A stretch of DNA of 53,114 bases from an uncultured Bacteroidales bacterium (GTDB lineage: Bacteria > Bacteroidota > Bacteroidia > Bacteroidales > UBA12077). The notes under the pieces were generated by a model. It was not told the origin of the DNA. It saw only the letters and a program-made list of their open reading frames with translations, and did no database searches. The position numbers and the translations under genes were made by a program. Numbering within the stretch: position 1 is the stretch's first letter; every line of letters begins with the position of its first letter. The stretch is taken from assembly GCA_964504155.1 (NCBI GenBank), contig CAZDCZ010000005.1, forward strand, positions 1 through 53,114. The letters run 5' to 3'. Below, one piece after another: positions 30,740-53,114 of the stretch.

Positions 30740-31302
30740 ATGTATGATAAATATAAGATAAGGATAAAGCATACTTTATAACAGTAATAACGGTTGGTTG
30801 GGTAGATGTATTTACTCGCCCAAATCATAAAAAACTTATAATTAATTCGTTGCAATATTGTATAAAGAATAAAGGCTTAATTGTTTTTGCCTATTGTTTA
30901 ATGCCAAGTCATTTACATACGATATGCAAGGCAGAAGGCAAAGTGTCTTTATCGGATGTTTTGCGCGATTTTAAGACATTCTCATCAAAAAATGTAATTA
31001 GTCAAATACAAGAAGAGCCCGAGAGCAGAAGAGAATTGATGTTAGAATATTTTTCAAAAGCATGTTTGCATCTGAAAAAAAAGCAAAATTATAAAGTTTG
31101 GTAAGATAGTAATCAGGCAAAAGAAATATTTAGCACTTCTTTTTTGTATTAGAAATTAGAATATATACATAATAATCCTGTTCAGGATTTAATAGTTGAA
31201 AAAGCAGAAGATTATTTATATAGTTCTGCAAGAAATTATGCAGAATTAGATAGTTTCTTCGATGTTTTTGTGCTAGATTATAAACCACTAATTCAAAATT
31301 AG
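30740..31302 (+). pseudogene. REP-associated tyrosine transposase (RAYT, HUH/Y1 family), disrupted
   Basis: 'AYFITVITVGWVDVFTR', HUH 'MPSHLH', 'LRDFKTFSSK', Y1 'KLEYIHNNPV', 'YLYSSARNY'. Frameshift near 30762; stops at 31102-31104 (TAA) and 31150-31152 (TAG). Confidence 0.88.
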
Positions 31303-52336: not shown

Positions 52337-52522
52337 ATGAGTAATGCAAAAATATCCATACGTTTTTTTGACGACCGCGAAGTACGAGCCGTTTGGGACG
52401 AACAAAACGCCAAGTGGAGGTTTAGTGTGTTAGATATTGTAGCTTTACTTACCGACAAAGACGACTACACCAAAACCCGCAACTATTGGAAATATCTTAA
52501 AGCCAAATTGAAAAAAAATTAA
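52337..52522 (+). pseudogene. Truncated N-terminal (BRO-N-like) fragment of a Fic-family protein
   Basis: 'SIRFFDDREVRAVWDEQNAKWRFSVLDIV...DDYTKTRNYWKYLKAKLKK' resembles the N-terminus of Bacteroidota Fic proteins; it stops after 61 aa with no HPF motif. TAACTTTG promoter box at 52287-52294. Confidence 0.6.
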
Positions 52523-52638
52523 CAATTATTTTATTGGATAAATAATTGTATTTTTATCGTTCAAACTGGTACACTTTTCAATTATTATAGTGGGTGCTTT
52601 TCAATTAATAAATACAAATGGGATTTGATTGAAAAATA

Positions 52639-52980
52639 ATGTCTAAAACTATATCATACAGAAAACACCTCTCAATATTCCTGATGATTGTATTTTTCAG
52701 CCCCTTGCTGATAAAAGCAACGCATTTTCTGTATGTACACCACGAGCATCATCATATTTCTTTTTCAGACAAACCGGAAGTTAATGAAAAACATAAAAAT
52801 TGCCCGATTTGTGCTTATGAATTTGTTGAATTCATTGATAATGAAAATCCGCAAAATACCTGCAAACCTGAATTCTTTTCAGATTACTATACTTTTCACA
52901 GTCAAAGTGAATGTATAATACTTCCCTTTTACTCATTCAATCTGCGAGCACCACCTGTTGATTTAGAGCATTTATTTTAA
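52639..52980 (+). CDS. Small DUF2946/CruR-like protein with TM helix, His cluster, CxxC and C-terminal RAPP motif
   Basis: 'HLSIFLMIVFFSPLL' TM; 'HHEHHH'; 'CPIC'; 'LRAPP' (nt 52945-52956), 7 residues before the stop. Confidence 0.65.
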   Translation: MSKTISYRKHLSIFLMIVFFSPLLIKATHFLYVHHEHHHISFSDKPEVNEKHKNCPICAYEFVEFIDNENPQNTCKPEFFSDYYTFHSQSECIILPFYSFNLRAPPVDLEHLF

Positions 52981-53028
52981 TTCATTAATTTATTAACAGG
53001 TCGTTGGTTTTGCTAAATAGTATTAACC

Positions 53029-53053
53029 CTGGCGCGGACATGTTGTCCGTGCC
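53029..53053 (+). repeat. REP hairpin, third copy
   Basis: Identical to the reverse complement of 31324-31348. Confidence 0.85.
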
Positions 53054-53059
53054 TTTATC

Positions 53060-53114
53060 GAAAACAATCATTTCTAATTTTGAATTAGTGGTTTATAATC
53101 TAGCACAAAAACAT
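53060..53114 (-). mobile_element. 3' end of a second RAYT copy, cut by the window edge
   Basis: 55/55 identical to the reverse complement of 31262-31316, including the RAYT stop codon (CTA at 53074-53076). Confidence 0.85.

Follow-up and report, generated by a model that had tools for sequence, protein, structure and literature searches.

The window analysed here is the whole of contig C5 (CAZDCZ010000005.1, 53,114 nucleotides (nt)), one of the 142 contigs in the 2.9-Mb assembly GCA_964504155.1 of an uncultured Bacteroidales bacterium. Near its 3' end lies a small intact open reading frame (ORF), here called the leader, with 134 nt left between its stop codon and the end of the contig. The subject of this analysis is the leader, the family of its homologues and the genes for TonB-dependent receptors that follow these homologues in other genomes. 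Coordinates are collected in Table 1.

The initial annotation of the window, made from the sequence alone, had named a 113-residue ORF with a hydrophobic helix, HHEHHH, CPIC and LRAPP, and all of these were located. The N-terminus of the leader is rich in Lys and Arg and is followed by a hydrophobic stretch of 15-17 residues. An AlphaFold2 model built on a 99-sequence alignment places a helix at residues 3-32, with a predicted local distance difference test score (pLDDT) above 90 across residues 11-30. The segment could be a Sec signal peptide or a signal anchor, and a possible signal-peptidase site lies between IKA and TH. HHEHHH corresponds to residues 34-39. At the C-terminus LRAPP occupies residues 102-106 and is followed by VDLEHLF and the stop codon, so that RAPP ends seven residues ahead of the stop. 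The product is therefore a protein of fewer than 150 amino acids (aa) with a targeting helix, a CxxC motif and RAPP near its C-terminus, the features of the arrest-peptide class discussed below.

Table 1. Features of the leader locus in the window and of the related loci mentioned in the text (plain positions refer to the window).
Feature	Position	Strand	Basis or remark
Leader (upstream) ORF	52639..52980	+	ATG start, intact, 113 aa, sequence MSKTISYRKHLSIFLMIVFFSPLLIKATHFLYVHHEHHHISFSDKPEVNEKHKNCPICAYEFVEFIDNENPQNTCKPEFFSDYYTFHSQSECIILPFYSFNLRAPPVDLEHLF
N-terminal hydrophobic segment LSIFLMIVFFSPLLIKA, residues 11-27, after K3/R8/K9	52669..52719	+	helix in AlphaFold2
His-rich segment THFLYVHHEHHH, residues 28-39 (H29 to H39)	52723..52755	+	conserved H29, H35
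CPIC, C55 and C58, candidate metal ligands, 44 residues 5' of R103	52801..52812	+	conserved CxxC
RAPP codons CGA GCA CCA CCT, residues 103-106, predicted arrest site	52945..52956	+	invariant R103, P105, P106
5' strand ACCTGTT (P105-V107 codons) of predicted long-range stem	52953..52959	+	RNAalifold, minimum free energy folds, pair counts
3' strand AACAGGT of predicted long-range stem	52995..53001	+	AACAG unchanged in all 10 intergenic regions aligned
Intergenic hairpin 2: 5' arm GTTGGTT, loop, 3' arm cut to AACC	53003..53028	+	comparison with L017, L018, L062
Edge of REP/RAYT copy: REP hairpin CTGGCGCGGACATGTTGTCCGTGCC, then 3' flank of IS200-like Y1 transposase gene	53029..53114	-	repeat copies
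Second repeat, directly upstream of leader	52508..52620	.	copies C5:30531-30639 (76%), C1:1-54 (98%), C32:5056-5130, C61:3162-3205
ORF of intact-looking RAYT copy	30850-31104		Y1_Tnp, E 4.5e-6
61-aa ORF (MSNAKISIRFFDDREVRAVWDEQNAKWRFSVLDIV…)	52337-52522	+	
Leader remnant in L031	L031:4001-4107		
CorA-like gene 3' of receptor, Saccharicrinis	L021:7132-8058, L023:6998-7924, L025:7038-7964	same as receptor	PF01544
Second small ORF with R[AG]PP near its end, 124 aa	C24:18206-18580 (= L063:1207-1581)	+	
TonB-dependent receptor 3' of the C24 ORF, 810 aa	L063:1736-4168		CarbopepD_reg_2, Plug, barrel

Homologues of the leader were found at two depths. A word-indexed search returned 25 close homologues with 49-91% identity, and a phmmer search of 1.84 billion cluster representatives (50% identity level) matched 100 clusters at E<1e-3, nearly all of 90-120 aa. 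In total more than 120 homologues were collected, about 100-115 aa long. In the close set of 25 the residues H29, H35, C55, C58, F100, R103, P105 and P106 are invariant. In the wide alignment, which holds 99 members with a mean column identity of 26%, C55, R103, P105 and P106 remain invariant, and M1, H29, H35 and C58 are each conserved in at least 90% of the members.

The initial annotation had expected homologues to keep both CxxC and RAPP, and this was borne out: 119 of 123 homologues carry RAPP (104) or RGPP (15), and at least two of the four with neither motif (P0024, P0067) are not full-length family members. In 94 homologues 44 aa separate CxxC from the Arg of the motif; for another 11 the figure is 43 aa. 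R-[AG]-P-P stands 1-11 residues from the end, with two or three residues after Pro-Pro in 64 homologues. The interval between CxxC and RAPP is itself poorly conserved and is coil in the AlphaFold2 model. Among relatives RAPP is encoded by synonymous codons (CGG GCG CCA CCT; AGG GCA CCG CCT; CGT GCC CCC CCC), and the pairwise ratio of nonsynonymous to synonymous substitution rates (dN/dS) in the clade of the leader ranges from 0.13 to 0.38, with 0.15 between the leader and its nearest relative, L062. Since the RAPP codons vary synonymously, dN/dS is low, and motif and spacing are kept, selection acts on the peptide.

The family is widespread. Its profile matched 81 of 401 evenly sampled Bacteroidota genomes; these belong to 50 of the 179 genera, and a single genome can hold as many as four copies. 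Within the bacterium studied here, all ORFs of 30-200 aa in the 2.9-Mb genome were scanned, and no more than two have R[AG]PP among their last 16 residues, both of them tied to TonB-dependent receptors. The second is an ORF of 124 aa on contig C24 ending in LRGPPVFSAK, which is His-rich (HYH, HAH, HQH), has two hydrophobic segments and no CxxC, and looks like an unrelated arrest-leader candidate; a receptor gene lies 154 nt 3' of it. A test for depletion of RAPP/RGPP in ORFs of at least 200 aa of this genome (none observed, about two expected) was uninformative.

The tail of the leader has been altered in one small group. The window and L062 lack about 30 nt that are present in L015, L017 and L018 (window 52957-52980 compared with L018:590-640); gone with these nt are the usual stop codon and, immediately behind it, a first hairpin, AGCAAT…ATTGCT. 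By this deletion the tail after RAPP grows from three to seven residues (VDLEHLF).

Of the 50 homologous loci whose neighbouring genes were analysed, 45 have a TonB-dependent receptor gene next on the same strand, 39-418 nt away. The initial annotation had expected such a receptor or a metal transporter after the homologues, and a receptor is present in these 45. The loci comprise 20 near ones from public assemblies, 18 of them distinct (Bacteroidales, Tenuifilaceae, Saccharicrinis, Prolixibacteraceae, Puteibacter and Lentimicrobiaceae, with L026 from the cultivable Puteibacter caeruleilacunae JC036), where the receptor follows in 20/20 at 54-355 nt (14 nt at L031, where the leader is deleted); 29 diverse loci from the phylum survey, with a receptor in 24, the ATPase of an ABC transporter in three and an unidentified gene in two (gap 39-418 nt); and L062, the contig of the closest homologue, with the receptor 69 nt downstream. 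Of the receptors at the 20 near loci, 19 are orthologues with 741-752 aa and an identity of 63-100% to the reference receptors; that of L032 has 806 aa and is about 30% identical to the references. Their domain order is CarboxypepD_reg, Plug and beta-barrel. Genes outside the leader-receptor pair are conserved only between very close genomes. In the absence of other conserved neighbours, leader and receptor form a two-gene module.

Two kinds of departure from this arrangement were observed. At L040, L052 and L060 leader paralogues with the tails …SLFALRAPPALF or …SLFALRAPPSLF stand 222-281 nt upstream of the ABC-transporter ATPase genes, and the genomes concerned carry several paralogues of the leader family. 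At L031, in a Bacteroidales metagenome-assembled genome, the leader has been deleted naturally: residues ~4-29 are left (…MIVFFSPLLIKATH, then SQL and a stop), this remnant is joined to the 3' arm of the hairpin between leader and receptor (GCCAACTTTAAAAT), and the receptor ATG follows 14 nt after the stop. The L031 receptor is intact and 83% identical to that of L009.

In the window a repeat occupies the place of the receptor gene. It starts exactly 48 nt after the leader stop, at 53029, and the contig ends inside it. Further copies were found at C5:31262-31349, on C45, C14, C95 and C40 and elsewhere, at least 10 in all, full or partial, many of them at contig ends; one copy within the window looks intact and encodes a protein matching the transposase family Y1_Tnp. 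The same palindrome stands at the edge of the element in five copies. The element thus has the features of a repetitive extragenic palindrome (REP) with its REP-associated tyrosine transposase (RAYT).

The initial annotation had suspected that a REP/RAYT copy 48 bp after the stop interrupts the locus, and the uninterrupted, nearly identical L062 shows that it does. L062 is a contig of 878 nt carrying a 91%-identical homologue with the same four-residue-longer LEHLF tail. Its DNA is 93% identical to window 52622-53028 and continues with AACTTAAAATATTATAACATT and the receptor ATG, where the window has the REP sequence CTGGCGCGGACATGTTGTCCGTGCC. This places the element 24 nt ahead of the position at which the receptor ORF would begin and costs the intergenic hairpin the last three bases of its 3' arm. 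In the case of a simple insertion, the far REP would be followed by AACTTAAAATATT...ATG of the receptor.

The damage is more extensive than the initial annotation held. An upstream block common to L062, L015, L017, L018 and L016 is absent from the window, and a second repeat takes its place; one copy of this repeat, C5:30531-30639, adjoins another RAYT, and the C1 copy forms the start of that contig. Homology to the intact locus is thereby reduced to an island of 407 nt (52622-53028) between two repeats. No orthologous receptor was found in the assembly: the best tblastn match had 33% identity (C78), and blastn with the start of the L062 receptor gave no match. The leader in this genome is a probable orphan, separated from its receptor gene and also from its promoter region. 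Because the ORF shows no decay (dN/dS 0.15 against L062), either the uncoupling is recent or the assembly has wrongly joined the contig across the upstream repeat; the connection of the leader to contig C5 may thus not be real.

It is possible, though we do not favour it, that the leader still controls a receptor gene beyond the RAYT copy that was not assembled or not binned, so that the circuit would be displaced and not dead. The intact ORF, with no relaxed constraint relative to L062, agrees with this, as does the fragmentation of the assembly at the RAYT family, with many copies at contig ends and contigs under about 2.5 kb (the minimum is 2514 bp) absent. Against it stand the insertion itself, which cuts the 3' arm of the hairpin and adds several hundred nt with a minus-strand transposase gene, the replacement of the upstream block as well, and the lack of any receptor trace by tblastn or blastn.

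The organization of the leader family recalls a known kind of regulatory ORF. CruR (Bp2923) of Bordetella pertussis is an exported DUF2946 (PF11162) protein with CxxC and with RAPP three residues from its end; the spacing of 45 residues between the two is kept within 1-2 residues across more than 2000 family members. RAPP arrest in CruR sustains expression of the downstream TonB-dependent transporter, and copper acting through CxxC lifts the arrest, leading to Rho-dependent termination (PMC9426467). In the PURE system CruR was shown to arrest with its two Pro codons at the P and A sites (PMC12992588). Arrest at RAPP or RGPP has been demonstrated for ApdA/ApdP and CruR (PMC10951233, PMC12992588), and RAPP and RGPP are the strongest two arrest variants (PMC12992588). 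CutF of Rhodobacter capsulatus, also a DUF2946 protein, binds copper and stalls, whereupon a stem-loop over the next gene's ribosome-binding site melts (PMC9973294; bioRxiv 10.1101/2025.02.05.636593). As proteins, CruR and CutF are undetectable or quickly degraded (PMC9426467, PMC9973294).

Bacteroidota have appeared in earlier catalogues of such ORFs. Ozturk et al. 2023 compiled 5,334 'CutF-like' proteins by the presence of a signal peptide and of PP among the last 15 residues; Bacteroidota contribute 19% of the set, 40% after normalisation, and TonB-like genes are among the commonest neighbours (PMC9973294). A 2025 EMBO Journal study reported, from every Gram-negative group, upstream ORFs with RAPP/RGPP that belong to TonB-dependent receptors, and the accessible part of its list includes Bacteroidota examples ahead of such receptors; the motifs CPICAFEF and HFLYVHH had no match in that part of the list (PMC12992588). 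The kind to which CruR, CutF and the RAPP/RGPP ORFs belong is therefore already catalogued, in papers of 2022-2025, and the leader family is an unnamed Bacteroidota member of it.

The leader family resembles CruR in being a small exported upstream ORF with CxxC and with RAPP near the C-terminus (three residues from the end in CruR, two or three in most members of the family), in the spacing (45 aa in CruR, 44 aa here), in the TonB-dependent transporter gene directly downstream and in a 3' part with more C than G. It differs from CruR in two additional conserved histidines just after the signal helix, in a unit of two genes lacking the third gene, PepSY_TM, in a receptor of the CarboxypepD_reg-Plug-barrel type that is not an orthologue of CrtA, and in the predicted stem that joins the stall-site codons to the intergenic region in the clade of the leader, in an A+T-rich Bacteroidota host. 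With CutF it shares a Cys motif and, as predicted, Sec targeting, a C-terminal Pro-rich stall site and a stem-loop ahead of the next gene that melts on stalling. CutF, however, has CxxxC and a proline-rich motif and controls the exporter-side enzyme CutO, and copper induces its stalling, whereas the target of the leader family is an importer; the opposite polarity would for this reason be expected. The RAPP/RGPP upstream ORFs of Fujiwara and Chiba, among them a 'TonB-related' class, have in common with the family a C-terminal RAPP or RGPP in a small secretory or membrane protein (PMC12992588; PMC7897499, PMC10987492), but ApdA and ApdP regulate Sec and YidC genes, not receptors.

Comparison with 13 DUF2946-type leaders from the supplement of PMC12992588 (12 annotated as DUF2946 and one as 'hypothetical protein') gave a similar picture. 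In the part of that supplement covered, all 13 stand upstream of a TonB-dependent receptor or a PepSY gene, with a CxxC-to-RAPP spacing of 43-47 aa (mode 46) and tails of 1-9 residues.

From these comparisons we consider it likely that the leader acts in cis as a regulatory peptide of the kind of CruR and CutF, ahead of a TonB-dependent receptor gene, and that its circuit is broken in this genome. The family would represent an uncurated branch, or an analogue, of that kind and would work in the manner of CruR and CutF. Judged by sequence, it shares the DUF2946 architecture; homology is not demonstrated and curated membership fails.

Several results weigh against this assignment. The initial annotation had proposed a search against DUF2946, and it failed: the leader protein did not match PF11162 at E ≤ 10, and among the 99 relatives there were only 13 matches, all below the cut-off of 23.7 bits (best E 0.0026). 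One relative, P0058, reached 15.7 bits in an alignment collinear from CxxC to RAPP (residues 47-112, model positions 50-117 of 117). PF11162 likewise had no match in the whole genome, and scans of the leader protein against all of Pfam and NCBIfam came back empty. The NCBIfam model NF047702 ('LIC10965 family protein') showed weak matches to 24 of the 99 members, that of P0058 being collinear across nearly the whole model, but the best E was 2.7e-4, the members checked scored 13.6-15.8 bits against a cut-off of 130 bits, and the leader protein was unmatched. In hhalign the family aligned with the 13 DUF2946 sequences over the N-terminal helix only, at 63% probability and with a shared F..P-L-L/I signature. 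A profile search with the 99-member alignment in a set of 5.8 billion proteins gave 44 matches, none annotated with a Pfam domain or named beyond 'hypothetical protein', and hence no bridge from the leader family to DUF2946. In the AlphaFold2 model the leader beyond its N-terminal helix is coil without a confident fold (pLDDT 51-78), and clustering of the four ligands H29, H35, C55 and C58 is unproven there. The receptors have no His-rich loop and no loops rich in His or Cys, and their scores against the family models are all below cut-off (TonB-hemin 158-177 against 317 bits, ZnuD 140 against 950, TonB-copper 76-77 against 472). Finally, the absence of a receptor gene from this genome could reflect an incomplete assembly fragmented at repeats.

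By analogy with CruR and CutF, we infer that the leader stalls, that it responds to metal with a given polarity and that stalling is coupled to expression of the receptor. The signal helix would bring the nascent chain to the Sec translocon or the membrane, and the ribosome would stall once P105 has reached the P site and P106 the A site. At that moment 47-50 residues would separate C55-C58 from the peptidyl-transferase centre, which would place them just beyond the mouth of the tunnel, and H29 and H35 would be 70-76 residues from the centre. Binding of metal by the four conserved candidate ligands, together with co-translational folding of the part that has emerged, may change the pulling force on the arrested chain. 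Because the ruler between CxxC and RAPP is sharp, the position of CxxC relative to the ribosome at arrest should matter, as has been proposed for CruR. In the polarity of CruR the arrest persists without metal and the receptor is expressed, while metal releases the arrest and turns the receptor off; this polarity would be expected for the leader, the target being an importer.

How arrest might be coupled to the receptor gene was examined in the intergenic RNA. In the clade of the window, intergenic regions are variable except for the block TTAACAGGT and the hairpin that follows it; in the closest relatives this hairpin, GTTGGTT...AACCAAC, ends about 20-27 nt 5' of the receptor ATG. AACAGGT in the intergenic region is the reverse complement of ACCTGTT, which covers the third base of the P105 codon and the codons of P106 and V107 and falls within the footprint of a ribosome stalled at RAPP. 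The RNAalifold consensus on its own predicts a CCTGTT:AACAGG stem, minimum free energy folds contain it in most near loci, and its positions pair in 80% of cells compared with 25-50% when the partner columns are slid. At L011, L015, L017, L018 and L028-30, when 81 windows are ordered by their complementarity to the intergenic RNA, the one at the stall site takes rank 1-4, a test confounded by G+C-rich RAPP codons in an A+T-rich genome. At L011 and L028-L030 the layout is ermC-like (1:2 / 2:3 / 3:4): the hairpin's 5' arm overlaps with the 3' strand of the stem, and the hairpin's 3' arm with a further hairpin around the receptor ATG. In a model of 37 loci, accessibility of the receptor start rises modestly on stalling, from 0.46 to 0.52; p is 3e-4 in comparison with free RNA and 0.014 in comparison with a ribosome placed 30 nt upstream.

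A stalled ribosome covering the P-P-V codons ACCTGTT would free AACAGGT and might thereby refold the intergenic RNA. As in ErmCL/ermC and SecM/secA, the arrested ribosome would cover one strand of a stem and rearrange the RNA round the next start; in the leader system, unlike those two, there is no Shine-Dalgarno element to unmask. Bacteroidota initiate translation on unstructured, A/U-rich leaders and do not rely on Shine-Dalgarno pairing. The prediction has other difficulties: the covariation test of stem and hairpin gave no compensatory support, complementarity between stall site and intergenic region is not general across the wider family, and at L015, L017 and L018, the closest full-length relatives, modelled accessibility of the start falls on stalling. 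No Rfam family was found in the leader-receptor region.

The same arrest leader could instead be coupled as in CruR: the arrested ribosome would shield a C-rich Rho utilization (rut) site or block Rho, and metal would release the ribosome and allow termination, the stem being incidental or a pause element. We regard this as a possible but less probable coupling. CruR, whose target gene is of the same type, is the precedent (PMC9426467). In all eight loci compared (L062, L018, L017, L015, L011, L028, L019 and L022) the segment from CxxC to RAPP (nt 210-300) has 22-33% C and 5-18% G, resembling, in A+T-rich genomes, the C>G 'bubble' to which the rut region of Bordetella cruR was mapped. A rho gene is present in this genome (629 bits, above cut-off), no intrinsic terminator was seen in the intergenic region, and accessibility modelling lends no support to unmasking of the start in the closest relatives. 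On the other side, an excess of C over G on the coding strand can stem from amino-acid composition alone, intergenic regions may be as short as 39-60 nt, and termination by Rho gives no reason why AACAG, which is complementary to codons of the stall site, should be an invariant block. RNA refolding as in ermC or SecM would be the most likely coupling in the clade of the window, somewhat likelier than Rho.

The family could also be an independent or very divergent branch of nascent-chain sensors, with two His and two Cys, a 44-residue ruler and a metal other than copper, zinc being the obvious candidate, that throws an ermC-like switch on an importer; we think this rather unlikely.

It is improbable, in our view, that the product acts as a protein in its own right, for example as a periplasmic metallochaperone, exported or held in the membrane, that binds metal and partners the receptor, with RAPP as a structural or targeting motif. 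Purifying selection along the whole peptide (dN/dS 0.13-0.38), the conserved His and Cys ligands and the signal helix would agree with such a role, and linkage to the receptor would also suit a partner. However, the sole invariant C-terminal feature, R-[AG]-P-P, toggles between exactly the two strongest arrest variants (PMC12992588), the fixed 44-aa ruler reaching to the very C-terminus is what arrest predicts, the region from CxxC to RAPP is poorly conserved and modelled as coil, and neither CruR nor CutF accumulates as a protein (PMC9426467, PMC9973294). A monitor of export or membrane insertion like SecM, ApdA and ApdP, whose arrest would be relieved by the pull of Sec on the signal helix, is most improbable: an N-terminal signal helix and a C-terminal RAPP are shared with ApdA/ApdP (PMC7897499, PMC10987492), but none of the 50 loci has sec or yidC downstream (45 receptors, three ABC ATPases, two unidentified genes), and such a monitor leaves no role for the two conserved His, the two conserved Cys and the CxxC ruler.

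As regards the metal, sequence alone does not decide among Cu, Zn, Ni and Co; a site of two His and two Cys would be as suitable for zinc as for copper. Assignment of a substrate from the receptor was dropped, given the family scores and the loop composition reported above. The solved structures nearest to the receptor by sequence, ZnuD and OprC among them, cover residues 9-299 only. Conserved neighbours were also tried and offered nothing besides a gene for a CorA-like divalent-cation channel (PF01544, E 1e-48), which lies 3' of the receptor gene on the same strand in three Saccharicrinis genomes. This neighbour is a weak hint that the leader-receptor module may handle a divalent metal.

Elsewhere in the window, a 61-aa ORF lies between a gene for an FAD/Fe-S oxidase and the leader; it had no Pfam match at E ≤ 0.01.

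Metal-sensing arrest peptides such as CruR and CutF are a recently found form of gene regulation by the nascent chain. To our knowledge, experiments on such peptides have so far been made in Proteobacteria and Actinomycetota only. The leader family has no name in Pfam, NCBIfam or the source annotations, and about 20% of the Bacteroidota genomes sampled contain it, frequently as several copies. The window's own copy is a natural leader stranded by REP/RAYT and by repeat-mediated rearrangement, and is chiefly a caveat for annotation. With its unusually sharp ruler from ligand to stall site, the family could be used to probe how a ligand outside the tunnel releases or reinforces RAPP arrest, and how a switch is coupled to translation in a phylum without Shine-Dalgarno pairing; it could also reveal which metal is imported by abundant, uncharacterised receptors. 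If the family proved to be an independent branch that senses a metal other than copper and acts by RNA refolding, it would be the first nascent-peptide metal switch described in Bacteroidota, present in about a fifth of genomes.

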